Below are positions 1 to 64,000 of a DNA stretch of 64,000 nt, one piece after another (position 1 is the stretch's first letter; each line of letters begins with the position of its first letter). Location of the stretch: NCBI GenBank assembly GCA_964434115.1, contig CAYSSX010000007.1:18734-82733 (forward strand). Reading direction: 5' to 3'. Under the pieces are notes generated by a model. That model made no database searches, was not told the origin of the DNA, and saw only the letters and a list, made by a program, of their open reading frames with translations. Source of the DNA: an uncultured bacterium. Lineage in GTDB: Bacteria > Omnitrophota > Omnitrophia > Omnitrophales > Aquincolibacteriaceae. The translations under genes were made by a program, and so were the position numbers.

Positions 1-2
1 TT

Positions 3-3000
3 GAGGCCAATGGAGATGAACTCCTGGTAACGGTTAACGGGATCAACCGGATTCGTTTCCTTGATGACACGCTGACCTCTGGAAAAATCGCTGTGTACAG
101 TAAAGATTCTTTTGTCCGCTTTTCGAGTGTCCGTCTTAAGGCGGACGCCGACCTTGAGTATATCCATGATTTTCAGGTCCTGGATCGCGATCTTGACGGT
201 AATAAGGTCGTTGACGCGGAAGACTACAAGCTTCTGCTGGCCTTGCACAACCTTGGGTCTCAGGAAGATTTGAACGGCGACAATACGATTGATCCAGCGG
301 ACCGCGAAATGCTCAGGATTTTGAGCTTTATCGACTTCAACAGAAATGGCGTCATTGAGACGGAAGACATTTCCAGCCTGCGAAATATGATCTGGGATGT
401 CAACGGTAACGGGGTCATTGAACAGACGGACTTGGCAAAGATTCAAAGCTGGACGCACCTTGGTGACCTTGTTCAGCGTGAGGTGTTTAGCATTATTGAT
501 AAGGCAGACGTGGATGACTCAGGCAAAGTCAGCTGGACAGACCTTGACCTTTCCAAATTGATGCTGTGGCGCTATTACGACTTTAATAATGATGGTGTTG
601 TCAATGATGATGACCGCGTACGCCTGCAGACGGTCATCAACGCCCGGCGCTTGTTCCCGAAAAACATTGACCTTCAAAGCTTGATTGCGAAAATCGATTT
701 CAATAAAGACGGCAAGATCGATGATGAGGACAAGGCCCGCCTCCGTCAGAACATTGATGAGTTCAATCTTGTCGATGTGAACAAAGACGGAAAAATCGAT
801 GACCGCGATATCAACCGTGTTGAGGCGATTCTTGAGCTTGTTTATATGATCCAGGAAATCAACCCCTCGGCCATCATCTCGCGCGACTTGACGGGGGATA
901 ACATTATCGACGAACGCGATGTCAAGGAAGCCCTTAAGTTTATCAATAACCTTGTGGACCGTAATAACGACGGCATCATCGATGGAACGGCGCTTGACGA
1001 TCTCCTTAGCGATATCCAGACGATCCGCCTATTCAGCGTGCCCCCAACCACCTACGAGCCAGCCGATTTGAACAGTGATGGCAAGATTGATATTCACGAT
1101 GTTCAGAAGTTCCTGGAACCTGCGAGTATCACCAAATATATCTTCAGGGATCTGAATAAGGACAGCGTGAAGGATGCAAAGGACCTCGAGATTGCCAAAG
1201 GGATCATCAATTACGTCCAGCAGTCGATTCAGGACTGGATCCAAGATGGAACGATTGATGCCAAGGATCTTCGTGCCTTGGCGCTTGCCGATCTCAACAC
1301 GGATGGTAAAGTCACGACAGACGATCTTAATATTGCGACTGGCTATCGGGACATTGACGGAGACGGTGTGATTAATTCCCGCGATCTGGCAGTGGCCCAA
1401 TACCTGCTCTACCGCGATCTGATTGACATTGATCATGATGGTCTTGTGTCTCAGACGGACGAGGCCCTGGTCCGCTTTATGCTTGGTGCGAAGACGATTC
1501 GCCAGGACGCCAACACCGCGGTTGAGTCCAGCGCCACGGATCATGTGGGAACCAATTTAATTTCGCGGGCCGTCAATGCATCTTTCAAATACCGGATGGA
1601 CATGCAGGAATCCGGCATCTACTCCGTCGGACTTACCCTTAAGAGCTACGACAAGGTTCTTCCCGTTAACTATGAATATCCATTTGATGTTTATGTGGAT
1701 GGCGAATTTGCGGGATCCGTAAAAATTGACGGGTCACATCTGGATTTCCAGAGTAATGGTCTGGAGCTTTATTTTGTTAAAGGAGTCCATTTTGTTGAGT
1801 TCAAGAGCAATGTCCCTGCCGGCGATGATCACCGTATCCAGGTCAAGGATGCTTTTGCCGAAGCCGCGGGAGACCTCAATAAAGACGGCCTTGTGGACAA
1901 CACGGATGTCAGCCTGATCCAGGCTGTCCAGCAGCGCTTCAACTGGCTGTCCCGCACGGACGTCAACGCGGATGGACAGATCAATGCAAGTGATGAAACA
2001 ATTGTCAATAACCGGGCAAGCGACCTCTTGAGCCTTGCCCTTAGCACGACCTATAACTATCAAGGCAGCCATGATCTATCCGAATCCGACATTGTTTCCA
2101 AACTTGCCAAGCTCGGAAAGCTTTCTGTCGACGGCAGCTTCCTTGCCGCTCAGCAGATTATTCTGGAAAACTTCAATTCGGGACTTCTCACGGGACTTCT
2201 AGAACTTCCTGCAGGCTGGCAGATCGATAATGGTGAACTCCGCAAAATTACACAGCCGGCTGGTACCGAAATCCTGCCCATGGGCGCATCAAATTGGAAA
2301 GATGGCGTCCTTGAGAGCGATATCCGGGTACGAGGTCTGAGTCTTGATCCGCGCCAGGCGGGACTCGTGTTCCGCATGGTAGACAGCAATAATTATTATT
2401 TTGCCGCTATCCGGCGTCTTGATAACCAAAAGGACTATCTTGTCATCGGTAAAGTGGTTAATGGTTCGGTGACTTATTTGACAACGGATTATCTTATTAA
2501 TGACACGGTTCTCAATGACCCCTTCTACAGCCTTCGCATTACGCTCAAGGGAAACAGCATTAAGGTGGATCTTTCGCTTGACGGGGTACCCGTCACCTCC
2601 AAGAGTGTTACAGATTCTACTTTTGCGGCCGGGAAAATGGGGCTGCTTGCTCAGGACACAGTTCCTTCCTTTGATAATTTATACGTGAAAACGGACATCC
2701 GGCTTGCGGACATGAGCAGCTTGAATCTTCTTGTTAACGATTTGACTGGAAATGGGCGCGTAGATGCTGAGGATTATGCGATCCTGGCCGCTTTGGAAGC
2801 CTATTCCCATACCGATGTGAACAATACGGGCGGCATCAATTCCGATCTTGCTCTTCTCCGCGACCTTGGGAATGCTGATATGGACACCAATGGCTTGCTG
2901 AATGCGGAGGATGTTGCATTAATCCGCGAGGTTCGCGACGAAGCGGTTATCCGTACGCGGCTTGACGTCACCGCGGATGGCAAAGCCGATATTGCGGACG

Positions 3001-6000
3001 CCAAGGCGATTGAAAACGCTGTCCGCTTGATGCAGGACATTAATGATGACGGCCAGATCAATGAAGCGGATATCAATATGATCCGTGACATGGCCAGCAT
3101 TTCACTTTTCCGCACGATTCCTCCGGGCGACTTAAACCGTGACGGCCTTACCGGAGATGTGGACGCTGAAATTGTACGTAACTTTCTGGACACCCTTTAC
3201 CGCGGCCTGAATGTGAGCGCTCAGGAACAAGCGCTTGCCGACATCAACCAGGATGGAGTCGTCAATTATGTTGACATCAACCTTCTCCTGAAAGCGAACG
3301 GATATTACCTGAAGAGCGAATTGACGGGGGACGGTTTTGTGAATCTTTTTGACCGCCTCAAGCTGGAAGGCTTCCTCCAGGCGCTTTACTCGGATGAGCT
3401 GATCACGCAGGAAGTCCTGAACCGGGCGGACCTTACGGGGCCTGATCAGAACGCGGATGGCGTGGGTGATAAAGACGGTAAGGTCCTTCAGGCGGACGAA
3501 GACCTCTTCATGAAGACCCTGCTTTATTACAAAGATGTCACCGATGACGGCAAGGTGGATGAAAAAGACCTGGCCATGATCAAAACCGCGCAAGAGCTCC
3601 TTGCTAAAGCCGACGGGATTCTTCCGAATCTGACTCAGATGAGCGGTATGGAAGTCTACCGCGCGCTCAAAGCGCTGGGCGATTTGGCTTACCGCGATCG
3701 CACCAAGCGCCTTGTCATTCAGTCCGTTCACGAGCAGAACTTTGACCAGAACACGAACGGGTGGGTACCTGACAATGTCGGCGCATGGAGCCGGGTGGCC
3801 GGTGAAATGGCGCAGACGGAATTCCGTGAGCAGCGCAGCACCACTTATTTTGAGGACGTCATTGAAGACGTTCAGATCAATGTGAAATTCAAATTCGATG
3901 GCCTTTACTGGAACGGCCAGCAGGGTGAAGGTATCGGCGGTTTGACCCTTCGCGAGGACGTCCAGACGGGAGATGCATACGAACTTCTTCTGGATGCCGC
4001 GCATTCTGCGATTTATCTCCGCAAGCGTGTCAACGGTATTTACAGCATCCTGGCCACGTCGGCAGTCAATTTCAGCGCTACCGACATGGATCAGATTACG
4101 GTCCGTTTGGTCAATGACCAGATCAGCGTCATTTTTAACGGCAACAAGCCTTTATTTACCGTTAAGGACGGCAGTTTTGAACGCGGCAATTTCGGGCTCT
4201 TTACGGAACCCGACAGTAAAGCGCGTTTTGACGACCTGAAAATTGAAACAGTCAATCTTGTGGAGTTGGAACCCGCCCTTGGGGTTCTGGAGCCTCTCAG
4301 CGTGAATGATTTCTCATCCGGCAATGCTTCGGAATGGATCCGTTCTCAGGATGGCGGTCAGTGGCTCGTGGAAGATGGAGCGCTGAAGCAGAAAAATTAC
4401 AGCGGCAATGAATATGAAATCTGGCATCAGCAGAATAATATTCAGGATTTTGTCTTTACCGCGGACCTTGCAATCCAGGGTCCCCCGAAAGCGCCCGAAG
4501 AAGAGACCTATGGCTTTGGCGGCGAGGGGGGGATGGGGTATGGAGGCGGATTGGGCGGTGGTATGGGCGGTGGAGGTTATGGAGGCGGCATGGGAGGAGG
4601 CGGTTATGGAGGCGGTGAAGGCGGTATGGGCGGTGGAGAAACGCCGACTCGCCGCGCCGGCATTATCTTCGCCAAAGAGAATGACAATAACTACTATCAG
4701 TTGGCCATTAATCCTGACGGCGGAAAAATGGAACTCTTCCTTGTCCGCGACGGCCAGACGACCCGCTTGGGGTATGGGATTATTCCTGTCCAGACAGATG
4801 AGCTGCCTTACCGGGTTGAAATCCGGCGCACAGGCGGACTTATCCGGATCCTTATCAACAGTGTAGAGCTGATCCGTACCCAGGATTTTAACCTCAGCCA
4901 GGGCAGTTTCGGTATTTACACCGAACCCAAGAGCCTGATGTCGATCGACAATATGAATTTCAGGAAAATGACGGCCATTCCCGACATCCAGCGCGATCTT
5001 ACGCTTACGAAAGATTTGAACGCCGATGGTCTTGTGAATGGTTCGGATTATGGGATTCTTGCTGATCTTAACAGCGTGACGTCAGCCGACTACAACAAAG
5101 ACAACATCCTTGATGATAAAGATGCCCAGCTTTTTGTGATTCTGGCCAACGGCCAGGCGGATGTTAACAAAGACGGGCTCGTGAATCAGATGGATAGGAC
5201 AGACCTGGCGGATGCTTATAACGGGCATGTGGACATTGACCAGGACGGGCTGGTTAACCAGAAGGATCTTGACCGTCTTAAGCTGATTCGGGCCCGCGTT
5301 TCGGATTGGGGCGGCAATCAACTGACCCTTGCGCTTTTTAGAAAGGCCAATATCAACAACGACGCCACGGGGGCCGTCAATCAGGAAGACATCTTCTCCT
5401 TGAAACTTGCGATCAGCCAGTACACCGAACTGGCCACCCTGGGCTTCCGGTGGACGGAATACCGCGCCATGACCCCGGCACAGAAAACAGAAGAAGTCAG
5501 AGTCTTTAATGAAGCTCATAAGAAGAGCTACTTTGTGGCACAGATTGACCTTATCGATTACATCTACGGCCGCGGCGATATGGACAGCAACGGCATTTCA
5601 AACGACCTCGACATCGCGATTATCCAGCAGGTCATTGATAAAACGCATACGGCTATCGACATTGAAAAGCTTGCGAATGCGGATCTGAACCGTGATGGCA
5701 AGTTCAGCCTCGAGGATTTGACTCTTTACTTCGACATCCTTCCTTATTATGTCGATGTCAACGGAGACAGTGTTGTCAATCACCTGGATTTTGTGGCTGT
5801 CCGGGAATCCCTGTTCCGTAAATACACGGCGGACCTGAATGGTGACGGTGCCGTCAATGAATTGGATATCGATTACCTCCACCAGCATATCCTTGGTCTT
5901 CAATCGATTGAAATGAATGGCAGCAAGGTTAAGGACCGCAGCAGTAATGTTACGCTCTCGGGCAATGAAGCCGTTGCCACGACGGATGCCTGGGTGGAGT

Positions 6001-57000: not shown

Positions 57001-60000
57001 ACCTGGGCGTCCCGCTGGTTCTTCAGAGCCAGTATGCCTATCAAATGACTTATGACCCGGTACTTGGGAGGCTCACGGTTAATAAAGCCCCGAGCAAGAA
57101 GGGTACGATCAATGTCGATGGAGACGACTACCGCTGGGTTTACGCGGAATACACGGAAAACAGCGTGAACAAATACATTTTCAAGATGGAAAAGAATGAC
57201 GGCACAAATGTTTACAAGGTGTCGGGCAACAGGCCCGCTCCTGCCTCTTTTGGTACAACGTACACGATCGGTAGTGTGACGTATACCGTTGCCTATGATG
57301 TGAATCTGGCCAAAGTGTCTCTCAGTTCGCCGGATGCCTGGGGCGACATCACGGGCCCTGACAGCAAAGTTTACCGCTGGACCTACAGCTTCAACAGCCA
57401 GGCCTCGACATGGACCTTCAATATTAAGAACGATCAGCAGCAGACCATTTACTCGGACAACGGTACAGGCAGCGGGAATCTGACTCTGCAGGAACATTTC
57501 ATTGTCGGCAACAAGGCCTTTGACATCAGCTTTGATACAACCACCCGCAATGTGACCTACACGCCTACGGGCAAAACAAAAACTTTCATGATCAACGGCA
57601 AGAATGTTGAGTACACCTATGTGACCTGGACCAAGAGCAGTACTAATTACTGGGCTTTTGTGATGAGCGAAACGGACGGGACGAATGTTTATCTGAAGCA
57701 GACGGGAACAGGCAACCCGCCGGCCAAGTTCTCGCCGCTTTATGTGGTGGGCGGAAAAGCCTACAAGGTGGGATTTGATCCTTTGACTGGAGCCAACGGC
57801 CGCATGCTCTTTGATTCGCTGAATGCGGACGGCACGATTTTGATCAACAGCCAGAACTACAACTGGTCCTACGACAACGTGGATGGCGGCAATGCCGGAA
57901 CGTTTACCCTGAAGATCGGACCGACGGTGATGTACACGTTGAGCGGGCTCTCTCATCCGCCGGTTCTGAACGTGCCTTTCTTTACGAATGGGGATGGCTA
58001 TGCGCTGACGTTCAATGCCGCGACCAACACGCTGCAGGCCCAGCGCACCGGTACGGTCGGAACCTTTACCCAGCAGAGCCAGAACTTTAAATGGAGCGTG
58101 AACACCTGGACTGTGAACAGCACGAATTACTGGAGACTGATGATCCAGAAAATAGACGGCTCGAATGTTTATGATCAGCAGGGGACAGGAACTCTTCCGA
58201 CCAATTTCAGCGGTCTTTATACGATCGGCACTTCGTATTACGAAATTCTTTACAACGCGGGCCAGAAAAAACTCACGCTGCATCCGACCGCTTTGACCGG
58301 CAGCTACACCGTGGACAGCAAACAGTATGACTGGAGATACGATACGCCCGGCGGCAACAGCTGGCTGCTCGAAATCAAAGATCATACAACGCTCGCCGTG
58401 GTTTACACCAAGACCGGAGCGGGAACCACGCCCAGCTTCACGGACCCGGTCATTCACGGAGTGAAGAGCTACACGCTGAACATCCAGGACCGCATTCCGG
58501 GCCAGCCGATGAAGGACCTTGTGCTCACGTCCGCAGGCAAAACTGGTACCTTTACCGGGCCTGCGTCTCAAAATTATGAATGGACTTTTGTCACCTTCCA
58601 GACCGGCACAAAATGGCGCCTGGTGCTCCGCCGGACGGACGGCTCGAATGTGTATGACAAGACAGGCGATATGCCGCTCAGCGCGACATTGAACGGGCTT
58701 TACAACATGAACAGCATTTTTTACGCGGTGGATTACGACACGGCCTTGAACAAAATCCGTCTTTCAGAAGCCACCCAGTCCGGCAGCCTGACCGGACCGG
58801 ATGCCAAGACCTACAATTGGAATTACGCCTATGACGGCGCGAATTACACGTTCAGCCTCGCGGAGCAGGGCGGCGCCAATCCTTACAGCCGTTCCGGCGC
58901 GGGATCAGTCCCCGTGTTGTCAGGCACTTACACGATGGGCGACACCCTTTACACCCTGGGCTTTGACCGCAAGCTCCAGAAACTTACGATGACAGTCACG
59001 GGCGACCCGATTCAGGGCGCGACCACCCGCACGCTGACCCAGTCCGCGGGAACAACGCCGACTTACACGGGAACCACGGCCACGGGCACCAGTGCGGCCG
59101 ATTTCTCCAGCACCGGTGCAGCGGCGCAGCACGCGGGTGTGACCTCTGAAGGACAAAAACTGCCGGTTCTTGTTTCCCAAACCAACATTGAGAGCCTGAA
59201 CCAGAACATCCCGTATGACTCCACGGGTGCGGATACATCGGCGCCTGTTATTAACAGTGATATTGTCCCGCCGTTCATTTCTTCCACCGGCGCCAAACTC
59301 CGCGACAATAACACGACGGTCGACGGCACCGCTCTTGGCGGAAATAAATATGAAGCGCATTTCACGGCACAGGACGGAAAAGATTACATCTGGACTTATC
59401 AAGAAGGTGTTTTCAACCCCATGACTGAGGAGTCCACGCCCACGACGCTGGACATTATCTCCGTCACGACCGGCTTGTCGGTTTACAGCGCGTCGGTGGA
59501 CGGTTACATGGCGAGCAACATGCCGACCTGGTTTTTGAAGGACGCGGCGGATCATCCTTACTATGCCTACGACTTCCAGTACGCAACGGGCGGCCACTTG
59601 ACCTTCAAGCCTGTGGAACGCGTGCTTGGCAGTTTCCAGGCAGGCGAGCCGCTGGAAACCTTCCAAACCATTTACTTCACTTATGAAGTGCCCGGCCAGT
59701 ACGGCTATAGCACCACGCATTGGGCGTACACGATCCGCAAGGCGGACGGCTCCACGGCTTTCTTTGATACGGGGACGGTCGATGGCGGCATGCATGGTGA
59801 CGAGGGCGGGGATACGGACAATATTTTGATGGCAGGGGTTTTCACGGCCAGCAGCAAAACCTACAAGGTCAATTACAACAAAGTGAATTTCAAGAGCCTC
59901 CTGAAACCTGAAACTCTTGCCGGAGCGTTTGCCGGTGAAGACGGTGCGAATTACACCTGGACGCTGGCGGAAGTCCATCAGCAGTATCAGACCACGACCT

Positions 60001-63000
60001 GGACACTGGTCATTAAGGACAGCTCGAACAACGAAGTTTACCGCTATGAATCCCAGGCTGAGACGCCTGATTTCCAGAAGCCGCTTGTACTGAAAGACGG
60101 CCGCTTGTACCGCTTGACCTATGACGCGGCGCTGGGCCGTTTGACCCTGACACCCGCGGGACAGACAGGCACCATCACGACCGCTTCGGAGGGCTCCTAC
60201 CGCTGGTCGTTCCTGAAGTACACAATCCAGGGTATGTACGGCCTGCAGACAAAATACATTTTCACGGTGCGCAAGACGGACGGCACCAATGTCTACACGC
60301 AGACCGATGAAGACAATTGGATGGAAGGTTCGGAAGTTCCGGAATTCTTCACCCCGGCCTACACGATTGGTTCCGTGATTTACAAGGTGGGTTATAACGA
60401 GACGGATAAGAAATTGAATCTCGTACCGTCCTCGCACGCCGGAACGTTCACGGATCCTTTTGGAACTGTTTACCAATGGGAATTCTCAAAGGTCAATCTT
60501 TACCGCGGCTGGCCGCAGAACCGTTACGAAGATCAATGGACGCTGAAATTCAAGACGGGCGGCACGGAAGTTTATAACAAATCGGGCTGGGTCACGGACG
60601 GCCTCCCGAATCCCGCGGAACCGTTTATGGTGCGTACCCGCGCGTTCTCGGTTTCTTACAATGAAGCGGATGGAACGCTGACGCTGGCCCCGGCCGGACC
60701 CACCAAGACCTTCAAGGGCTCTGACAATGCCGACTATGAATGGTTCTTTGTCTCCTGGCTGGATAGCGGGACAACAAAATGGAAATTCATGATGAGCCGC
60801 ACCGACGGCTCCAATGCCTACACCAAGAACGGCGACGGTACGCCTCCGGCCCGTTTCGATGACCTGTTCCGCATGGGCGCAAACCCGTATGTGGTGCTGT
60901 ATGACAAGAATCTGAACCGCCTGACTTTGACGCCTCCCGGAACCGTGGGGGATTTTGAAGGCCCTGACGGAAAGAAGTACCGCTGGACCTTTGACAACCC
61001 GACGGGCAATGCCTGGTCGTTCCGTCTTGAGCGCGAAGACGGCCAGAATGTCTACACCAAGACCGGCACTGGAATTGTCCCGTCGTTTGTGACGCCTTAC
61101 TTCATGGGCGCGCGCGCTTACTCGATTACCTATAACCCGAACACCTATGACCTTCGTTTCAACACGATGGGAACCGCGGGCACGTTCCGCGGTCCGTTCA
61201 CGCTTACAGGCCCGGATGACTATGAGTGGACCTACGCGAGCTGGACTGAAAATTCCCAGACCAAGTGGCAGTTTGTGATTGAGAAGAAAGACGGCACCGG
61301 CAACTACGTGCAGTCCGGCACCGGCACAACGCTTCCGGATCCGTTCACAACCCGTTACGCGTTTAACGGCAGCACCTACACCGTAAGCTTCAATAAAACC
61401 ACCGGGGCGCTTGTTCTCAAAGCCACGGCCATCAGCGGTTCTTACACCTCTCAGGGCAATATGTACAACTGGGTGTATGACAACCCCACGGGCAACAAGT
61501 GGTCCATCAAGATTGACCGTCCGAATACGGAAACCGCCCTTGATCCCGCGGGCCGCATCGGTCTTGGCTCTGCGGTGAATCCCACGGCCGGGAATGAAAT
61601 CGGCAATGACCAGCCGTTCGAAATTTATGTCGTGGAACAAGGCTATGACACGGTCACCCGCAAATGGTTTGTCCGTTATGGATTCCGCGGGGGCCCGAGC
61701 TATTCAAGCGGTGAAGGCGGCCAGTCCTGGTACTACAACAACGTGTACATCAATGGCCAGCTGATCGGAAAAATGTACCGCTACAACGGCTTCCGTCTTG
61801 AATTCACTGAGCCTGTGGGCGATGTGCAGGTCACCGCGCAGCCCGTGAACTGGAACGGCGACACGGTTGGCAATCAGGGCAGCTACCGTTCAGCGCCGAA
61901 CACGGTCCGCTTGTGGCCGCCGGTTTACTACGCGGAAGGTTATGGCGCAACCCCGAACCTTGACAGCCTGATCGCTCATGGCTTTGACCTTTACTTGCCG
62001 GTGTTTAACGTCGGTCTCAAAAAACTCACGCTCGACAGCACGGGCCAGACAGGAACCTTCACAGGTCCTGACGGCAATTACCAGTGGGCCTACTCGCGCT
62101 ACATGGAAAGCGGATCCTGGCAGTGGCGTTTCATGATCAAGAAATCTGACGGCACGGTGGTTCATCAGGTCCGCGGCACCAACACACCGCCCGCGACGCT
62201 GGCCACGATCTATAAAATCCAGGGTGTTGATTACGCGATTGATTTTAACCCCACGACCAAACAGATCATGATGGCCAAGGCCCTGCAGAGCGGTACCTTC
62301 ACGGAAGGCTCAAAGACCTTTACCTGGAATTACTCGTTTGACGGAAATGCCTGGACGTTCAAGATTCTGAATGACGCGAGCGCCGTGGTTTACACCCGCA
62401 GCGGCACGGGCACAGCCCAGCCTGACCTGAGCGAACCGGTGGTTTTTGGAGCGCGCGCCTACACGCTTGGCTTGAACCGCGCCACTAACCGTTTGACTTT
62501 GACACCGGCCGGAACCGGCAACACCTTCACAGGTCCGGACAGCAAGTCTTATCAATGGGTGTATATCTCTTATATGGATGGCGGCTGGACGCGCTGGAAG
62601 TTCGCGATGATCGGAACCGACGGACAGAACGCGTATCTTGAAACCGGCAATTATTCAGTGCCCGCGCATTTCACCAAGACGTTCACCATGGGCGGTATTG
62701 AGTATGTGGTTTCCTACAATGACACCACCAAGAAAATCACCTTTGAACATTACGCGATTGTGGGAACTTTCACGGGGCCCGGCGGCAAGACCTACAGCTG
62801 GAGCTACTCCAACCCGAGCGGTTCTTCCTGGACCTACGACATTCTGGATTCCGACGCGAAACGCATTTACCGCGCCACGGGTTATGGCGCTTCCCCGGCA
62901 TTCTCAACGCCGGTTTACCTCGGCGACGTTTTCCCGTACACCATTGCCTATGACGCGGGCCTCCGGAAAACAACCCTGACACCTGCCGGCATTCTGGGAC

Positions 63001-63998
63001 ATTACACGGCCGATAGCGCGACCTACGACTGGGCCTATTATGAAAACGCCGGCCAGTGGACTTTCCGAATGAAGAAAGCGGGCGGTACTGATTTCTTTGA
63101 GCAGGCAGGCTGGGGCGAATTGCCTTCGACCTTTGGCACCACTTTCAAAATCGGCCCTGTGGTTTATCTTGTCAGCTACGACAAGGTCCAGAAGAAAGCC
63201 ATCCTGAAGCCGAAGAAAGTCACGGGCGACTTTACCGTGTCGCTGGACGGCATCACTACGGAAACCTTCAACTGGAGCTACGAGATCGACGTTCAGAATT
63301 ACGGCTGGGGCGAGGGAACACAGACCTGGACCTTCACGCTTGAAAAGAGCGACGGCACGAATAAATACACGCAGACAGGCAATGGTACGCCCCCGGCGAG
63401 CTTTACCAAGAAATACACCATCAGCGATCTTGTCCGCTACAACGTAGGTTTCAATCCCGCGAACTTCACCCTGACGCTGACCCCGGACAAGGTTTTGATC
63501 TACCGCGGGGATGATGTGATCAAGGTGGGAACGCAGTGGTTCGCGGTGCGCGGCACGAGTATCGCCACCCTTGAAATCCGGTCCCTTGACTGGGTGGGCA
63601 GAAATGCCACGCAGCTTTTCCTTGGAGATGAAACAAATACTTGGCGCGTGGTCGACCGCGACCTCGAGAATGAAGAAGGCGGCTGGGGCTACGGCACGGA
63701 GAAAATTCTTGAGGTCACGGACAACAAGGGCAATGTGAATGAAAGCTATACGGTGACGGTGAACGGCCAGCAGGAAAAACGTATCCGCATCAAGAACATG
63801 GAATACAAGATTGTTGGAACTTTAGGCGGCGAATGGGACTGGATGACTGGTCAGCCGAAGCCGCCTGATTTCACGCTGCAGCCCATTTCGGGAAGTGTCC
63901 ATTCCAGCCTTACCGCGAATCCGGTCATTGATTCGGAAGGGGATTTCTATACGGTCCGTCTGAAGCCGGGCACATCGAACGTTTATGAAATTTCCAGC
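3..63998 (+). CDS. Internal fragment of an ultra-giant multi-domain extracellular adhesin or scaffold-like protein, partial at both the 5' and 3' ends (start and stop lie outside the window)
   Basis: Codon phase beginning at nt 3 translates through all 21,332 codons with no stop. The ORF track lists no + strand ORF in this phase; any in-frame stop after the first in-frame ATG at about nt 318 would have produced a huge Met-to-stop ORF in the track. The translation contains recognisable domain families (dockerin-like loops, TSP3, DUF1080/LamG-like, ILEI-like) and internally consistent repeat families. All 60+ listed + strand ORFs lie in the two other phases. Strong codon periodicity. Confidence 0.93.
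168..1500 (+). repeat. Array of about 14 dockerin-type or EF-hand-like Ca2+-binding loops, each followed by a short helix segment
   Basis: Translation shows DLDGNKVVDAEDY, DLNGDNTIDPADREML, DFNRNGVIETEDISSL, DVNGNGVIEQTDLAKI, DFNNDGVVNDDDRVRL, DFNKDGKIDDEDKARL, DVNKDGKIDDRDINRV, DRNNDGIIDGTALDDL, DLNSDGKIDIHDVQKF, DLNTDGKVTTDDLNIA, DIDGDGVINSRDLAVA, DIDHDGLVSQTDEALV. These match the 12-residue D-x-[ND]-x-D-G-x-[VI]-[DN]-x-x-D loop of type I dockerin (Pfam PF00404). Confidence 0.6.
1560..1868 (+). other. Module A copy 1: unclassified beta-sandwich or CBM-like module
   Basis: KYRMDMQESGIYSVGLTLKSYDKVLPVNYEYPFDVYVDGEFAGSVKIDG...LELYFVKGVHFVEFKSN. Signature shared by at least 20 copies: G-x-Y-x-[VIL]-G-L...[LI]P-x-x-Y-x-[YF]-x-F-x-V-x-V-D-G...L-x-L-x-x-G-x-H-x-I-x-F-x-W-x-N. 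Confidence 0.5.
1869..2010 (+). repeat. Canonical two-loop dockerin module
   Basis: GDLNKDGLVDNTDVSLIQAVQQRFNWLSRTDVNADGQINASDETIVNN: two 12-residue Ca-binding loops each followed by a helix. This is a close match to the type I dockerin duplicated segment. Confidence 0.65.
2160..2700 (+). other. DUF1080/LamG-like (concanavalin-A-like lectin/glucanase fold) domain 1
   Basis: PAGWQIDNGELRK...WKDGVLESDIRVRG...AGLVFRMVDSNNYYFAAIRR...AAGKMGLLAQDTVPSFDNLYVK. This matches the DUF1080 (PF06439, 3-keto-disaccharide hydrolase-like) pattern W-x-v-x-d-G-x-l ... DF-x-L ... sG-[IV]-x-FR ... G-x-[IV]-G-L-Q. Confidence 0.55.
2700..3600 (+). repeat. Dockerin-like Ca-binding loop array (about 10 loops)
   Basis: DLTGNGRVDAEDYAIL, DVNNTGGINSDLALL, DMDTNGLLNAEDVALI, DVTADGKADIADAKAI, DINDDGQINEADINMI, DLNRDGLTGDVDAEIV, DINQDGVVNYVDINLL, DVTDDGKVDEKDLAMI. 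Confidence 0.55.
3620..4260 (+). other. DUF1080/LamG-like domain 2
   Basis: NGWVPDNVGAWSRVAGE...FEDVIEDVQINVKFKF...EGIGGLTLRED...RGNFGLFTEPDSKARFDDLKIE. Same fold signature as domain 1. Confidence 0.45.
4290..4970 (+). other. DUF1080/LamG-like domain 3 carrying a Gly/Met/Tyr-rich loop insertion
   Basis: EWIRSQDGGQWLVEDGALKQ ... QDFVFTADLAIQG [Gly-rich insert] AGIIFAKENDNNYYQLAINPDG ... QGSFGIYTEPKSLMSIDNMNF. Confidence 0.55.
4509..4640 (+). repeat. Gly/Met/Tyr-rich low-complexity segment (GGMGG/GGYGG), in frame
   Basis: YGFGGEGGMGYGGGLGGGMGGGGYGGGMGGGGYGGGEGGMGGGE encoded by ggc/gga/ggt/atg codon runs; it sits inside a loop of LamG-like domain 3. Confidence 0.8.
4990..5900 (+). repeat. Dockerin-like loop arrays (about 4990-5300 and 5575-5900) flanking a short non-repeat spacer
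   Basis: DLNADGLVNGSDYGIL, DVNKDGLVNQMDRTDL, DIDQDGLVNQKDLDRL, DMDSNGISNDLDIAII, DLNRDGKFSLEDLTLY, DVNGDSVVNHLDFVAV, DLNGDGAVNELDIDYL. Confidence 0.55.
5990..6290 (+). other. Module A copy 2
   Basis: WVEYQVGITTTGNYDVGLEVINHEKLELPPNYTYQFKVFVDGTEVGIF...LNLNPGNHVIRFEWINDK. Confidence 0.5.
6290..6620 (+). repeat. Dockerin-like loops
   Basis: DRNQNGQVDAEDVNSI, DLNHDGLVNDLDLAKF, DVDKNGKLNSKDANLI. Confidence 0.5.
6620..7270 (+). other. Non-repetitive segment of unknown fold
   Basis: KDISVETFKEILRYKEQQNNFYINDVF...ATVVHIDELKNLGDVTVIIAARALDLDADQIIKGQAERKIGAQGFGFDDYKAVSKVIEQTQNRDFYLL... No recognisable family by eye. Confidence 0.3.
7383..8560 (+). repeat. Bacterial thrombospondin type-3 (TSP3) repeat block of about 10 repeats, with an embedded dockerin-like pair around 8230-8420
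   Basis: DKDGDGLTDADELAMGLDVDVDGDGLKGALDPDSDNDGFSDGEEIARG...DSDGDGIPDLSDPSAFKADTDSDGFSDGWEKDHGTNPLDKNSKP...DSDGDGILDSAETALGTSSDNPDTDGDGFSDKWEKDHNTNP...DKDGDGILDDEEAALKTDPEKADSDTDGFSDKEEQTAGTNP...DTDGDGFSDAEEIARGSSP...DSDGDGFSDWEELSRFTDP. Classic D-x-D-x-D-G-x-x-D-x-x-E...G-T-[ND]-P motif (Pfam PF02412). Confidence 0.7.
8800..9080 (+). other. Module A copy 3
   Basis: FMQYRVQTYGGKYTIGLDVRSMDAISLPENGFYEFDVVVDGQMRGRLQI...LDLQAGAHDIVFKWVNSTPY. Confidence 0.5.
9720..9910 (+). other. Module A copy 4 (shortened variant)
   Basis: SLDYRFNVHTDGNYQVGIRATNAAGVSEGYEFVINEYVDGEFRQTIRMDG. Confidence 0.4.
10120..11330 (+). repeat. Six tandem copies of a ~65 aa MORN-like (MORN_2/YwqK-type) repeat
   Basis: Units: ISKRTYYENGKPQVVAMMNPQGSVGRLAVMTYDAGGNVTRQDQYNF...YWD / SGRFFYQAGKPFVAVELNAEGKVSGIISFATDAAGKVQSLDRYTY...YWQ / SRVFFDGVNPLGSVELNSAGKVTRLYAYKMDANGAIQYQDRFLF...YWD / TGRTFFQGGKPLVDVRVDADKKAIGFTVLAMDASGTIYSSDRYSLY...FWD / TGRSFYQNGVPWIDLSIDPQGYVQSMNRYRTDASGHMMDSYRYGF...YWN / GGRVIYDADGKVISQEVYSN. 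Consensus [YF]-[YF]-x-x-G-K-P...G-K-V...D-A-x-G...D-R-Y-x-Y...Y-W-[DQ]. Confidence 0.45.
11330..18300 (+). repeat. Tandem array of about 9 supermodules with a ~760 nt (~253 aa) period, containing module A copies 5-13. Each supermodule is [module A] - [dockerin-like loop(s)] - [two beta-hairpin-like repeats] - [dockerin-like loop]
   Basis: Module A cores recur near nt 11890, 12630, 13400, 14160, 14925, 15720, 16480, 17235, 17985, with spacings of 740-795 nt. One unit: GDYTVALSYVYPQNPGVGYKSEYQVYVDGSLV...LKLEAGRHRIVIAG. Linker pattern: DLNKDGxVD ... YxFxDGxxxFxSD ... IxLxGxxYxIxxDPxTGxVxL ... DLNxDGxVD. Copies are diverged at both protein and codon level. Confidence 0.7.
18400..18970 (+). other. 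DUF1080/LamG-like domain 4
   Basis: NGWAMQNGRYAQSSGAAVKAISLIKDGITVPENFDLTGTLQFDG...AAGILLRYRDDQNYAWISIDGP...TGKVGILSDRSLANFSSLELK. Confidence 0.55.
18975..21840 (+). repeat. Beta-hairpin-like repeat array I, units of about 40-60 aa
   Basis: Recurring pairs: [YW]-x-F-x-D/N-G-x-x-x-[FY]-x-S followed by [VI]-x-[VIL]-x-G-x-x-Y-x-[VI]-x-x-D-x-x-T-G-x-[VI]-x-L. Examples: NTVVLNGVTYKLQDNAPGVNQLSLIRQ; YRFTLMGTGTFVDSNGTT..LNSTAYQVKVTGTGAVQLVQ; QTLTHNGKVYEVTYDNLTGKYSFRDV; IEIAGTTYGVKAELVNTVPTGYYLLFNAAGQQV; VEITVAGKRYFLELGAS / SEIALGGERYFIKYGAAHNQITLTQ. Confidence 0.6.
21860..22620 (+). repeat. Dockerin-like loop array
   Basis: DVTGDGFVNKEDADVI, DLNKDGKVDRADYRLY, DVNDDNTINYLDRQEL, DVNDDGKVDSNDLNYM, DVNGDGFVDAKDKQIL. 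Confidence 0.55.
22700..22990 (+). other. Module A copy 14
   Basis: WVEYNYTVDPSGNVFAGISVRSVHDRVIPDGFQYDIDVYLDGVYKGNIKI...LQIEDVEKGQHAIKFVFKNISS. Confidence 0.5.
23020..23540 (+). repeat. Dockerin-like loops
   Basis: DTNADGKIWVDDMDEL, NGDGNITMEDHDLI, DYNGDKRVDIDDRKLV, DITGDGHVNAQDLAYL. Confidence 0.5.
23560..27950 (+). repeat. Beta-hairpin-like repeat array II, with a short dockerin-like insert near 26830-26960
   Basis: Same motif family as array I. Examples: IRFNGKFYSVRQDAATGQYVLWDGAETFITDG; VILDGDTYQVTLNELNGAYSFRSGQKVYESN; IVIGKYTYDINVVDPVKQKMTL; VVLRGISYKVGRDPFTNEVTLNQ; VVLRGITYTIEKRGLNLYRFKDGANNQFDS; VVLGGRRYEIRSYDSERWELVRG. Confidence 0.6.
28090..28930 (+). repeat. Dockerin-like loop array
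   Basis: DVNKDGLINATDRSVL, DINRDGRPANQDPADE, DVNSDGLLDSFDVAKY, DIDGDGTATQLDLDFL, DTNDDGKVSNAEIDVF, DFNGDGIQTAADLQTV, DINGDYHVDYKDIFLL, DVDGNGTVEQADVDAI, DVNKDGLMDQRDLDAL. Confidence 0.55.
28960..29260 (+). other. Module A copy 15
   Basis: SFTFDKYNAPKDGTYMLGVELQGSEVDTIIFDVFVDGMKQGTISV...LELAAGQHQIQFVRTD. Confidence 0.5.
29280..29780 (+). repeat. Dockerin-like loops
   Basis: DINSDGVYDEQDRAMI, DVNRDRVFDELDLIAY, DVNRDGKTDADDRKMI, DINGDGLVNIADAVSL, DVNGDTKVDQLDIELI, DFNNDEIVDARDLEIM. Confidence 0.55.
29800..30570 (+). other. DUF1080/LamG-like domain 5 with a short Gly/Met-rich insertion near 30300-30380
   Basis: NWDTKTGTWQVQSGLYRQ...LKDFVLSTDLAFTG...SAGLVFRSEDDGNYYDIVINRYD...[FQMPGMGGMYPGYEGSGGGYQSS]...FYNLTVESSGTSFRVFVNGEFVFEV...SGRVGLTSQGVQVLFDNFSL. 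Confidence 0.55.
30580..33470 (+). repeat. Longest dockerin or EF-hand-like Ca-binding loop array, roughly 30 loops over ~960 aa
   Basis: DLDQNGTIDAFDYAIL, DVDHDGFVNASDLNRM, DLDKNGLLNDNDLKKL, DVNKDNRVDDLDMAIM, DVNGDGFFTRLDRSRI, DVNGDHLINFVDTQNF, DLDQNGRVNRSDLIPL, DINRDGTTNQKDADDL, DQNGDNKLTAADLTRM, DVNDDQKLDAEDLNIA, DINENGTVNNKDADVI, DLNKDGAVTFLDTELF, DKDGNGWMDQDETKFY, DVDGDGKRTEADLDRI, DIDENFNIDDTDIQLM, DLNKDGRVTQADVDLV, DINRDGEFTNYDVFMA, DINGDGKISGML, DVNDDGLVNQTDIDYV, DINSDGDANILDRDLM, DINGDKLINQNDTAMA. Confidence 0.6.
34080..35140 (+). repeat. Dockerin or EF-hand-like loop array
   Basis: DSNGNDAADPQDLAAL, DVNSDGSLSPQEEADA, DINRDGIVNGIDLRLL, DVNGDSVVDETDLDYF, DQNKDGDFNEADLTTF, DYDGDGKLSQNDVNET, DLNKDGNVNMDDHALL, DIDGDGFVSPEDIERI, DIDQNGKVNFSDIDKL, DINGDKIKDAKDVKAI. 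Confidence 0.55.
41740..41990 (+). repeat. Gly/Thr/Met-rich low-complexity linker
   Basis: MGGTGGTGGTVGGGSGEIGGGGTLGGGHGGEGEGGEGGMGGLGGLGGTGGTGGTGGTGGSMGGGGTLGGHMGEGGM, in frame with the flanking repeats. Confidence 0.8.
42000..43450 (+). other. Largely non-repetitive island inside hairpin array III; candidate globular domain of unknown function
   Basis: PVKWEYSGAVVTKPYDVSFNPLTGEISVQERQV...YIHNPANGYSSQFIKDFDTFVFTYTQYPYPWESSLETSYNYTSGIPGSISGGAGGSTPNGLLSGNTSMEGAYDILFDSPNGNMSTRGNLQYMAMQQLQLYQDERQIFHPWVLGVHRVLEPKYNNDAAV...WTDFIQAGHRTSRISFHPVNNLGDTRTFDIPDYVGGVTFINSAVVEGALGNIYDLFVFKTAFDQLWFTDG. It lacks the hairpin periodicity of its surroundings and is aromatic-rich. Confidence 0.3.
44730..45060 (+). 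repeat. Longest Gly/Leu/Met-rich low-complexity linker, ending in a Cys pair
   Basis: GGGIFDWGFLGGLGSGGGLGGDGEDGGDYGDLGGLGGLGGDGGLGGMGGLGGSGGEGGLGGMGGMGGLGGMGGGDLGGLFGGSGGDFGGLGDLSGFCENADFCYGMGGYNP. Confidence 0.8.
45690..45990 (+). other. Module A copy 16
   Basis: NYQLDITDQGFYRVGLSAKVLSDLEDAIYKDNAKGPSLALDHAFSVYLDGKFYGTFYL...VLIDKGIHDLKFVWNVPE. Confidence 0.5.
46110..47620 (+). repeat. Hairpin-like repeats with two Gly/Met-rich linkers (near 46510-46580 and 46870-46990)
   Basis: VRYEAVRNEEGKWSFVNGGTVYTEDSNGQITVNGVLFNVKTD; linkers WGNWGGGDDDYPGMGMGGMGMGGYGSS and GGYYGGDEGDDPFGMGGYFGPGGSMGGGYGGTQQQPKP; VVIDGTTYHVMKDPAGRVFLLKT. Confidence 0.55.
47830..48110 (+). other. Module A copy 17
   Basis: YWADYEFSIDASGSYEIGLEVLKGNDVHMETFRFDVFVDDMETPAAQL...LARTFSAGNHRIRFTWLNPV. 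Confidence 0.5.
48520..49110 (+). other. Distinct beta-sandwich or CBM-like domain, different from module A
   Basis: YFKGTEANVDAAYIVSRGATGSGSMGYGGFGSGDPTISITETVAQAGTYRIGLAARNYSGQDNKPNWDGWKFSNNMTNARF...GKIYWKRDGDTDFNEARSLDFSLWANGESKEYSLYMKDNALWNGIIREIKLVPTDEATSNFNIRGISF. Confidence 0.3.
49130..49370 (+). other. Module A copy 18 (short)
   Basis: GWGVYGPQEEGYFKYRVVVDGQSKGTFEVAWDKTGHNENYLNVELSAGQHDIKIIEMN. Confidence 0.45.
50270..50570 (+). other. Module A copy 19
   Basis: YASYYLDYEVTLDTPKSQDIAAYDVGLSLKSYDGMTIPENYEYKFEILVDGIKAGVLTI...LRLNLPDGFHTVRFRWMNPV. Confidence 0.5.
50690..51110 (+). other. ILEI/FAM3 (PANDER)-like domain
   Basis: GTQPVIVYAVVDEHTGKVIKTGYTGTWDAPASDFQDMVTAMPEGRMVVAATFGGAPYSYSGTNELFRAFEALGASDFRNISQGDSWVFVGRKGARSSS. 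This aligns by eye with the conserved core of vertebrate FAM3 proteins (pattern G-I-N-V-A-L-x-N-G-K-T-G-E-V-L-D-T ... I-V-L-M-G-T-Y-D-D-G-A ... A-R-R-L-I-A-D-L-G-S ... G-F-R-D-N-W-V-F-C-G-G-K-G), i.e. Pfam PF15711 ILEI. Confidence 0.5.
51540..51640 (+). repeat. Gly/Met-rich low-complexity linker
   Basis: AWGGYGGYGGGMGMGMGMGGEEGGSGGRGNY. Confidence 0.8.
51700..51950 (+). other. Module A copy 20
   Basis: MAFDVEVSEDGYYAAGLEARNYFQALADWKIEVDVYVDDEYVRQAEF...LFLKKGKHRIYFVVTDE. Confidence 0.45.
52120..53120 (+). repeat. Hairpin-like repeats (last block before the C-terminal repeat class)
   Basis: VIQIENRFFSVEIAGEQVTFRNGAEVITPDAEGRFAIEGRKYQVSRNAAGDVGISG; VTLLGVKYKVFGTDPKALTLEE; VTVNGQLYVIQQNAEGRYVFTG. 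Confidence 0.5.
53120..53500 (+). repeat. Ser/Thr/Ala/Gly-rich low-complexity linker. Similar linkers occur near 55990-56420 and 59010-59330
   Basis: SSPAGDIQGGQDTTPRDTITNTSNNAPITVNPAGTTVTGSPITSDSGNTNYTGTGIDAAHPDIPSQGASAADIPSAGTAAAYPQVADQG. Later: TSADYNNTGANPVYSTVTSQGASGADLNYTGAAPGDS... and TQSAGTTPTYTGTTATGTSAADFSSTGAAAQHAGVTSEG... Confidence 0.7.
53540..63998 (+). repeat. C-terminal array (continuing beyond the window) of at least 35 copies of a ~80 aa (~240 nt) Trp/Tyr-rich repeat of unknown family
   Basis: Consensus G-[TS]-F-T-G-P-D-x-x-x-Y-x-W-x-[YF]-x-x-x-x-x-G-x-x-W-x-[FW]-x-[IM]-x-[KR]-x-D-G-[ST]-x-x-Y-x-x-x-G-T-G-x-x-P-x-x-F-x-x-x-[YF]-x-[IM]-G-x-x-x-Y-x-[VL]-x-[YF]-[ND]-x-x-x-x-x-L-x-L-x-P. 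Examples: QTGTFTGPDGNYQWAYSRYMESGSWQWRFMIKKSDGTVVHQVRGTNTPPATLATIYKIQGVDYAIDFNPTTKQIMMAKA; TVGDFEGPDGKKYRWTFDNPTGNAWSFRLEREDGQNVYTKTGTGIVPSFVTPYFMGARAYSITYNPNTYDLRFNT. No dockerin-like loops occur in this part. Confidence 0.65.
54600..54960 (+). other. ~110 aa domain inserted into the C-terminal repeat array (copy 1; copy 2 at about 61540-61960)
   Basis: FQISVTQQGSGFTEFRVDGGPANNWNWERTAIFINGVKVADVARNSAFRINYSGPLGDLKIKAQFMDDYGG versus FEIYVVEQGYDTVTRKWFVRYGFRGGPSYSSGEGGQSWYYNNVYINGQLIGKMYRYNGFRLEFTEPVGDVQVTAQPVNWNGD. Shared F-[QE]-I-x-V ... W ... [IV]-[FY]-I-N-G ... F-R-[IL]-x-[YF] ... P-[LV]-G-D-[LV]-x-[IV] ... A-Q. Confidence 0.35.
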
Positions 63999-64000
63999 GG

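Follow-up and report, generated by a model that had tools for sequence, protein, structure and literature searches.

A 64-kb window of Omnitrophota DNA is a stop-free part of a giant gene, probably of the dockerin type

In our reading, the DNA analysed here, a stretch of 64,000 nucleotides (hereafter the window), is an internal piece of 21,332 codons of a real Omnitrophota gene for a 'Dockerin-type giant protein', and its product is presumably an extracellular, calcium-stiffened and multivalent glycan-binding tether; we give this reading as a whole a probability of about 0.7. The original prediction had described a single stop-free frame across the whole window, and this was confirmed. Frame 3 of the + strand contained 0 stops where about 937 would be expected by chance, and the probability of so long an open frame arising by chance is ~1e-416. 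That the window is entirely coding and free of regulatory DNA is also true, as a trivial consequence of its position inside one ORF. The GC content by codon position was uniform along the window, and a search of it for embedded RNA genes found none.

Giant repetitive genes are notoriously prone to mis-assembly, the fragmentation of dockerin-type genes was considered unresolvable by West-Roberts et al. (2023; bioRxiv 10.1101/2023.11.21.568195), and relatives in MAGs are known solely as contig-limited fragments or N-gapped scaffolds. The open frame might thus be an assembly or annotation artefact, chimeric or repeat-expanded, or a dead gene that happens to be open. However, the longest exact DNA repeat in the window measured 18–19 nt, there was no repeated DNA and no non-self DNA similarity, and the internal repeats of the protein were at most 41% identical to each other. 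Because the window lacks DNA repeats, a collapse or expansion of repeat regions, for which the original prediction had proposed a check, is ruled out at the sequence level. The chance probability given above likewise speaks against an artefact, as does the presence of the same frame, collinear, on an independent metagenome contig. An artefact or a dead gene is therefore largely refuted already and extremely improbable.

This second copy, an ortholog (L001) on the 212-kb JGI metagenome contig Ga0209573_1000118, is 74% identical to the window in amino acids and 70% in nucleotides. Over aa 4–3753 of the window, the alignment spanned 3,741 codons with 23 gap columns, and pS was 0.75 and pN 0.17, with synonymous sites saturated and dN/dS below about 0.1. 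Conservation was even over the module types (62–83%), and the dockerin arrays were 71–82% identical. Upstream of the equivalent of the window start, the frame of the ortholog stays open for at least 3,874 more codons (11.6 kb). These 3,874 aa carry 28 dockerin stretches and 12 TSP3 stretches, and a simple hydropathy scan of them revealed no TM segment (maximum Kyte-Doolittle 19-residue mean 1.10). If both genes are collinear, window and extension together amount to at least ~25.2 kaa. The original claim of an internal fragment, taken from a single real gene of more than 64 kb, is borne out by the collinear ortholog, the strong purifying selection and the frame that remains open further upstream; the giant gene is real and is kept by selection as a protein. 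The pair constitutes direct evolutionary evidence that a dockerin-type giant frame is maintained in this way. It also gives a practicable way towards the full-length architecture. The JGI contig continues for ~129 kb past the window-equivalent region and for 7.9 kb past the upstream stretch shown to be open.

Table 1. Features of the window (nt and aa positions counted within the window).
Feature	nt	aa	Strand	Remarks
Single stop-free frame	3–63998		+	21,332 codons, no terminus inside the window; internal fragment of giant gene
N-proximal Ca-loop region	3–7379	1–2459	+	DxDxDG loop-helix pair arrays amid LamG/DUF1080-like and CBM-like modules; Dockerin_1 E 1e-56, 8 stretches; EF-hand_7 also matched
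LamG/DUF1080-like lectin-fold cluster	2190–4982	730–1660	+	Pfam, partial copies, motifs
DUF1080 copy	3741–4244	1247–1414		Pfam-supported, PF06439 3keto-disac_hyd, E 1e-11, 45.7 bits (cutoff 26.8)
Gly-rich insert	4512–4637	1504–1545	+	Inside LamG/DUF1080-like cluster
Bacterial TSP3 Ca-binding repeats	7380–8582	about 2460–2860	+	PF18884 TSP3_bac, E 4e-35, 6 stretches
Six ~72-aa hairpin repeats	9867–11261	3289–3753	+	MORN-variant/YD-like in motif only
9-period ladder	11799–18671	3933–6223	+	Regular, period ~250 aa
~150-aa all-beta hairpin runs	18672–28043	6224–9347	+	Iterated HMM; one CBM-like module at aa 7557–7665
Second dockerin/EF-hand Ca-loop array	28200–34982	about 9400–11660	+	Dockerin_1 E 6e-60, 11 stretches
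Hairpin-unit runs	34983–53114	11661–17704	+	Amid five CBM-like modules, three Gly-rich inserts and one ILEI
ILEI domain	50769–51026	16923–17008	+	PF15711, E 1e-13, 51.9 bits (cutoff 27)
C-terminal hairpin array	53469–63497	17823–21165	+	~20 units of ~170 aa

Pfam profiles and motif counts recovered the domain content as originally stated, namely dockerin-like loops, TSP3, LamG/DUF1080, CBM-like modules and repeats (Table 1). The window encodes 81 DxDxDG-type Ca loops of the dockerin/EF-hand kind, of which 30 fall in aa 0–3000 and 25 in aa 9000–12000, and Dockerin_1 (PF00404) was found in 23 above-threshold stretches (E 1e-56, 8e-24, 6e-60 and 4e-10 in four chunks). The second Ca-loop array resembles aa 0–2100, and the TSP3 region contains DxDxDGxxD motifs at aa 2492–2823. 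Putative glycan-binding modules comprise 20 CBM6/35-type beta-sandwiches and about three LamG/DUF1080 lectin-fold domains, besides a single ILEI domain. Next to the Pfam-supported DUF1080 copy, the lectin-fold cluster holds further partial LamG/DUF1080-like copies at aa 1559–1659, and the copy at aa 730–895 was assigned by eye from sequence motifs.

Each period of the ladder consists, in this order, of a CBM6/35-type beta-sandwich, a Ca loop-helix, a beta-hairpin insert and a second Ca loop-helix. Additional CBM-like modules were located in the first hairpin runs (Table 1) and at five positions starting at aa 15207, 15923, 16363, 16737 and 17214. The CBM-like modules show the beta-jelly-roll fold of CBM6, CBM35 and CBM36. 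Comparison of their profile with the PDB gave E values of 0.004–0.8, nearly all matches being CBM35 or CBM6, and Pfam CBM_35 reached 19.6 bits, under its cutoff of 28.

With so many dockerin stretches in the window and upstream in L001, the protein might instead be a cellulosome-like docking scaffold or cargo, whose dockerins would bind cohesins, either to gather many partner proteins or enzymes or to fix the protein itself to a cohesin-bearing scaffold, and which would mainly serve polymer degradation outside the cell rather than cell–cell tethering. Modules of the CBM6/35 type commonly occur in cellulosomal proteins and in those of glycoside hydrolases, and polymer processing at the cell surface was also proposed by West-Roberts et al. 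(2023). However, Pfam detected neither a cohesin nor a glycoside hydrolase or any other catalytic domain over the 21,332 aa. Canonical dockerin proteins bear one dockerin each, whereas the window has dozens of copies in one polypeptide, and its ladder differs from the contiguous canonical dockerins in that the two loop-helix halves are parted by the hairpin insert. Compared with cellulosomal type I dockerin and CBM35 modules (PDB 2wz8, 2w46, 2vzp), the window protein also differs in its CBM sequence signal, which stays below the Pfam cutoff. A cellulosome-like function is, on this evidence, improbable.

More than half of the window protein (52.7%) is made up of an all-beta hairpin unit of ~150 aa, detected in 81 copies with an iterated HMM. 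In the runs at aa 6224–9347 the unit had no sequence match in Pfam, NCBIfam or the PDB, and the dark regions in general matched nothing in NCBIfam or the PDB by sequence. A model of a single unit predicted a confident all-beta meander, and a search for a solved structural analogue found none. The C-terminal array is rich in T, W and Y, poor in D and devoid of Ca loops, and is predicted to fold as a 16-strand beta meander. For the shorter ~72-aa repeats, neither MORN_2 (17 bits) nor RHS_repeat (9 bits) reached its cutoff, and a MORN_2 identity was rejected as sub-threshold.

A YD-like motif (Y.V.YD..TG.L.L) is present in the hairpin units, and in many phyla adhesins with Ca-binding repeats attain sizes of several kaa. 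Both observations would suit a giant adhesin of a different type or from a different phylum with convergent Ca-binding repeats, for instance a T1SS-secreted RTX/Bap-type protein or an RHS/YD-shell toxin carrier. Membership of the hairpin units in the RHS/YD repeats was rejected, as there was no significant match to RHS_repeat (PF05593, 9 bits), and over the 21,332 aa no RTX nonapeptide (HemolysinCabind), Big, cadherin or VCBS-type domain reached E 0.01. We consider an adhesin of this other origin quite improbable.

Under the preferred reading, a dockerin-type tether, the protein should leave the cytoplasm. A simple hydropathy scan (not DeepTMHMM) revealed no TM-like segment in the window protein, the maximum Kyte-Doolittle 19-residue mean being 1.46, while a hydrophobic segment would require more than 1.6. 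Cysteine makes up 0.07% of the residues, and five of the seven CX4-11C pairs lie in aa 11661–17704. Since TM-like segments are lacking, Cys is nearly absent and Ca-binding and lectin/CBM modules are abundant, the predicted protein is soluble and fits a secreted or surface protein, in agreement with the adhesin or scaffold proposed at the outset. Its localisation is presumably extracellular, and binding of Ca and glycans, a role in tethering and the possession of an anchor are likewise presumed.

Omnitrophota are bacteria of ultra-small size that live as episymbionts or predators, and a tether might work in them as follows. After export, Ca2+ binding would fold and stiffen the loop-helix arrays, while the hairpin units might, as a conjecture, assemble into long rod-like or tubular stretches of beta structure and thereby extend the reach of the molecule. 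The many CBM and lectin modules would then bind glycans of a host or prey envelope with high avidity, so that the small cell becomes tethered to its partner. By analogy with published members, the C-terminus beyond the window would bear a membrane anchor together with SecA-like and C39-like domains for export or processing. Biochemical tests of tethering to a host or prey could draw on a defined set of modules, namely the CBM6/35 ladder, LamG domains, Ca-loop arrays and hairpin unit.

Apart from the JGI contig (74%), no close sequence relative was detected, and the next best match was 36% identical. A chimeric N400+C400 query had no match in GTDB representatives and retrieved from JGI metagenomes only the N-terminal ortholog L001; a profile scan had no match in GTDB representatives or viral contigs. 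In an exhaustive search of representative proteins, no match exceeded 5,283 aa in length or 57% in identity. When two segments of 1,000–1,200 aa were compared with protein libraries, no homologues were returned, and the known ortholog L001 was missed as well. We conclude that giant ORFs are missing from these libraries, so that the lack of matches does not indicate that such genes are rare. Further relatives occur in the assemblies GCA_016196565, GCA_016196555, GCA_041667225 and GCA_049642145, and every MAG relative examined was a fragment filling its contig. Dockerin repeats are also present in large proteins of Clostridia.

A more far-reaching interpretation, which we put forward tentatively and regard as rather unlikely, is that the gene is far larger than 64 kb, that the hairpin unit represents a previously unseen fibre or tubule fold, and that the lineage possibly stands outside the currently sampled Omnitrophota. 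With such a size, this would be the first complete, uninterrupted dockerin-type giant, possibly exceeding 60 kaa, because the examples published so far are all considered incomplete.

The original prediction had ranked the gene among the largest of prokaryotes and held that very few proteins above 20 kaa had been described. The second statement is outdated, and the first is not supported, given the sizes already catalogued. West-Roberts et al. (2023) reported 46 Omnitrophota genes longer than 90 kb, encoding up to 85,804 aa, and a 2026 catalogue (Nielsen and Lui; bioRxiv 10.64898/2026.06.07.730766) lists 3,650 proteins of at least 10 kaa and 348 of at least 30 kaa, with a maximum of 147,155 aa. 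West-Roberts et al. (2023) also named the present architecture 'Dockerin-type giant proteins' (e.g., CAILPI010000004_73). Of the two giant-protein classes in Omnitrophota, it is the less frequent and the less completely known, with three examples of at least 30 kaa in 2023, all thought to be truncated by assembly. The window is most probably a further member of this already described class and opens no new category; the class threshold was set at 30,000 aa, compared with at least 21,332 codons in the window, or at least ~25.2 kaa if the ortholog is collinear throughout.

A distant relative resides on contig JADGBR010000015.1 (69.9 kb) of 'Candidatus Omnitrophica bacterium nW3_bin14' (GCA_015231405.1). 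Like the window, this contig is coding over its entire length, all on one strand, and contains dockerin, TSP3, DUF1080 and LamG modules, whose order is collinear with aa 2–3165 of the window, although the identity is only 25–30%. Where the window has a single frame, the annotation divides the relative into five genes. As three of the four borders between these fall on N-gaps of the scaffold, we rejected this multi-gene organisation as biology. The window and L001 contain no marker genes, and among the sequence comparisons it is this relative that provides the link to Omnitrophota.

In the 2026 catalogue, PF00404 and PF18884 define a cluster of 17 proteins, and 21 proteins carry dockerin; no dockerin-type member is found among the giants of at least 80 kaa. 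The catalogued proteins have at most 15 dockerin copies each, compared with the 23 stretches of the window and the 28 upstream in L001, a contrast that is only indicative as the counting methods differ.

With regard to the class of West-Roberts et al. (2023), Discoidin (F5_F8_type_C) and GNAT domains, both known from its members, did not reach E 0.01 anywhere in the 21,332 aa of the window and could lie outside it. Neither the internal window nor L001 shows a start, a stop, a signal peptide or the C-terminal TM anchor, SecA-like domain and occasional C39 domain of the class, all of which would fall outside both. A T2SS-like locus has been reported upstream of giant genes in Omnitrophota. For the RHS-like antiparallel beta-helix tubules of published members, the window offers its 81 hairpin units as candidate segments, with a predicted beta meander for the single unit and the sub-cutoff RHS_repeat score given above. 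Shared with the class are a long uninterrupted ORF of at least 21,332 codons, the many dockerin/EF-hand and bacterial TSP3 repeats, DUF1080 and ILEI domains both above cutoff, long beta-hairpin arrays and a long N-terminal part free of TM helices. The ladder also matches the ~200-aa subunit described for the class, a CBM35-like beta-barrel flanked by dockerin-like helices.

Analysis of the coding potential of the window revealed 0 stop codons across the 21,332 codons of one reading frame (+ strand, frame 3, nt 3-63998), exactly as stated in the original prediction, which had described the whole window as a single stop-free frame. Given the base composition of the window, such a frame should by chance contain ~937 stops (log10 P(no stop) ~ -416), and in shuffled sequences the open run never exceeded 231 codons. 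The five remaining frames contained 141-1,482 stops each, and their longest open stretches comprised 118-662 codons. The 662-codon stretch (- strand, nt 56778-58763; 141 stops per 64 kb in its frame) is antisense to the T/W/Y-rich C-terminal array and is most likely a by-product of sense-strand codon bias. Codon-position GC was ~0.58/0.37/0.62 in every 2,000-codon block except for the last 3.3 kaa, where it moved to 0.50/0.47/0.69 together with the amino-acid composition. This composition change is sharp; within nt ~53,469-63,998 (aa 17823-21332) Asp decreased from ~10% to ~5.5%, Thr, Trp and Tyr increased, GC at codon position 2 rose from 0.37 to 0.47, and no Ca loops were present. The final 167 aa (21166-21332) did not match any repeat family of the window.

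An open reading frame of this kind might be an artefact or a pseudogene, and repeat collapse or expansion had been named as a concern. Self-blastn of the window gave the self-alignment only, and exact DNA repeats did not exceed 18-19 nt; with no repeated DNA present, an assembler would have had no sequence to collapse or expand. The internal protein-level repeats were all <=41% identical and are all judged to be old. Scanning of JGI metagenome contigs identified an ortholog on Ga0209573_1000118 (212,387 bp, locus L001), with one frame stop-free through all 7,616 codons. L001 aa 3875-7616 are collinear with window aa 4-3753 (73.8% amino acid and 70% nucleotide identity, only 23 gap columns), and identity was even over all module types (62-83%). 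Synonymous sites were saturated (pS 0.75), pN was 0.17, and dN/dS was ~0.08 wherever dS can be estimated. The divergence pattern of this alignment is characteristic of a frame that is translated and kept under strong purifying selection. An artefact or pseudogene is disfavoured both by the lack of repeated DNA and by the selection on the ortholog's frame, and these two independent lines indicate that the window frame is a real gene.

Upstream of the position matching the first base of the window, the ortholog frame continues without a stop for another 3,874 codons (11.6 kb), in agreement with the expectation that the gene exceeds 64 kb; if both genes are collinear, its length would be at least ~75.6 kb. 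In this upstream part (L001 nt 2-11623, 3,874 aa) we observed 28 dockerin stretches, 12 TSP3 stretches and 55 DxDxDG loops, and saw no Cys, TM-like segment or start codon context. Towards its N-terminus the gene is even denser in Ca loops than within the window.

Word-indexed protein searches gave zero matches, scans of GTDB species representatives and IMG/VR did not find the window, and no marker genes were present in it, so its assignment to Omnitrophota is inferred. When 1.84 billion representatives were searched exhaustively with HMMER, only 216 matches reached E <=0.001; the best was 36% identical, and no matched protein exceeded 5,283 aa in length. The 74% identical ortholog was missing from the results, and the protein libraries therefore evidently lack giant ORFs. 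The two large protein collections appear to omit such ORFs systematically, and a search there that finds no homologs of a giant gene is uninformative on rarity. The best-match relatives each span their own contig end to end and are therefore all fragments of larger genes. Most informative was a relative (P0002) from 'Candidatus Omnitrophica bacterium nW3_bin14' (GCA_015231405.1), whose contig JADGBR010000015.1 (69,855 bp) is entirely coding on one strand. The contig's proteins (3,026, 3,985, 942, 1,013, and 14,271 aa) contain dockerin, TSP3, DUF1080, and LamG, and aa 2-3165 of the window align with its modules in unchanged order, with 25-30% identity. Of the four 'gene boundaries', three consist of Ns (21047-21056, 23886-23895, and ~26951-27041) and are thus scaffold gaps. 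With the giant gene of an Omnitrophica MAG annotated as five genes, public annotations therefore under-report such giants.

The window protein contains 9.3% D, 9.0% G, 7.7% T and 14 Cys in 21,332 aa, and no TM-like segment (maximum Kyte-Doolittle 19-residue mean 1.46, threshold 1.6). Pfam and HMM searches recovered the predicted domain content of dockerin-like Ca loops, TSP3, LamG/DUF1080 and CBM-like modules, with CBM_35 itself sub-threshold in Pfam; a regex search counted 81 DxDxDG-type loops. All Cys residues (nt ~33,498-56,399) occur as seven tight CX4-11C pairs, each in the hairpin-unit half, and may represent metal sites or small loops closed by disulfides. Four low-complexity, glycine-rich inserts (GGxGGMGG type) may act as flexible hinges; the JGI ortholog keeps the first of them (64% identity), which is therefore not junk.

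Features of the window protein (aa, frame 3 translation). Pfam entries are matches above curated cutoffs, CBM_35 excepted.
Feature	nt	aa	Remark
Dockerin_1		mostly 0-2400 and 9400-11800	Pfam, 23 stretches
TSP3_bac		~2460-2860	Pfam
3keto-disac_hyd (DUF1080)		1247-1414	Pfam
ILEI		16923-17008	Pfam
CBM_35			Pfam, sub-threshold match only
CBM-like array (ladder)	11799-18671	3933-6223	9 of 20 modules, period ~250 aa
Hairpin units, long runs		6224-9347, 11661-17704	
Hairpin units, C-terminal array		17823-21165	
Gly-rich insert 1	4512-4637	1504-1545	within LamG-like domain
Gly-rich insert 2	41745-41951	13915-13983	
Gly-rich insert 3	44751-44951	14917-14983	
Gly-rich insert 4	51543-51629	17181-17209	
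CX4-11C pairs		11166/11173, 12434/12446, 13564/13571, 14603/14608, 15006/15012, 17864/17873, 18788/18799	

Module families were defined by iterative HMM searches of the window protein against itself. The CBM-like module (~105 aa) is present in 20 copies, nine of them in a regular array. An all-beta hairpin unit of ~150-165 aa, with 81 significant copies covering 52.7% of the window, forms the ladder spacers, long runs and a C-terminal array; its consensus consists of hairpin sub-repeats following the pattern '(V/I)T(I/L)xGxxYxVxYDPxTGxLTLTE'. Sequence searches of Pfam, NCBIfam and PDB gave no match to the regions dominated by this unit, and the unit is without a solved structural analogue. In a ladder period (e.g., nt 13302-14060, aa 4434-4686) a ~60-aa beta-hairpin insert splits two dockerin-type Ca loop-helix halves, a layout also found in the eight other periods. 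The insert fits the same HMM as the 81-copy unit, and a common origin of the long arrays and the ladder spacers is suggested.

The window encodes a soluble, Cys-poor and selectively maintained polypeptide, built of Ca-binding loop-helix arrays, TSP3, lectin-fold (LamG/DUF1080, ILEI) and CBM6/35-type modules, and long beta-hairpin arrays. The polypeptide would be extracellular, its dockerin and TSP3 arrays folded and stiffened by Ca2+ and its hairpin runs forming extended rod or tubule segments. With its ~25 lectin and CBM modules, the protein could attach multivalently to glycans on the envelope of a partner cell and so tether a very small cell to a host or prey, and a C-terminal TM and SecA-like region, as in published members, might provide anchoring and export. 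The main rival, in which the dockerins have a cellulosome-like docking role, is a less likely alternative, weakened by the split dockerin geometry and because neither cohesin nor catalytic domains were found across the 21 kaa of the window. A reading as RTX/T1SS adhesin or RHS toxin is disfavoured by the above tests.

The rarity claimed by the original prediction is outdated: the survey of West-Roberts et al. (2023) contains 46 non-redundant genes >90 kb from Omnitrophota, the largest encoding 85,804 aa, and the catalogue of Nielsen and Lui (2026) lists 3,650 proteins >=10 kaa and 348 >=30 kaa, with a maximum of 147,155 aa. The former separates the giants into two groups, 'Archaeovorins' and the less common 'Dockerin-type giant proteins'. 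The latter possess numerous EF-hand/dockerin and bacterial TSP3 repeats, discoidin, DUF1080, ILEI and GNAT domains, a ladder of ~200-aa beta-barrels closest to CBM35 with flanking dockerin-like helices, RHS-like antiparallel beta-helix tubules, an N-terminal part mostly without TM helices, and a C-terminal TM anchor with SecA-like, sometimes C39, domains. Only three examples >=30 kaa were known, all thought incomplete (West-Roberts et al., 2023). In the later catalogue the dockerin+TSP3 cluster comprised 17 proteins with at most 15 dockerins each, and no dockerin-type member was among the giants >=80 kaa (Nielsen and Lui, 2026). Interest here lies in the unusually clean (repeat-free DNA) and conserved pair of window and ortholog, in the abundant hairpin unit, and in the 212-kb ortholog contig, which extends another 7.9 kb upstream of L001 and ~129 kb past the window-equivalent region and may yield the first dockerin-type giant in full length. 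Like the published proteins, the window has dockerin, TSP3, DUF1080, ILEI and the CBM35-plus-dockerin-helix ladder, and is without TM segments; unlike them, it gave no discoidin or GNAT match within its 21,332 aa. It thus shows each class feature testable inside it except these two, and it is a new example of a published architecture, not a separate class.
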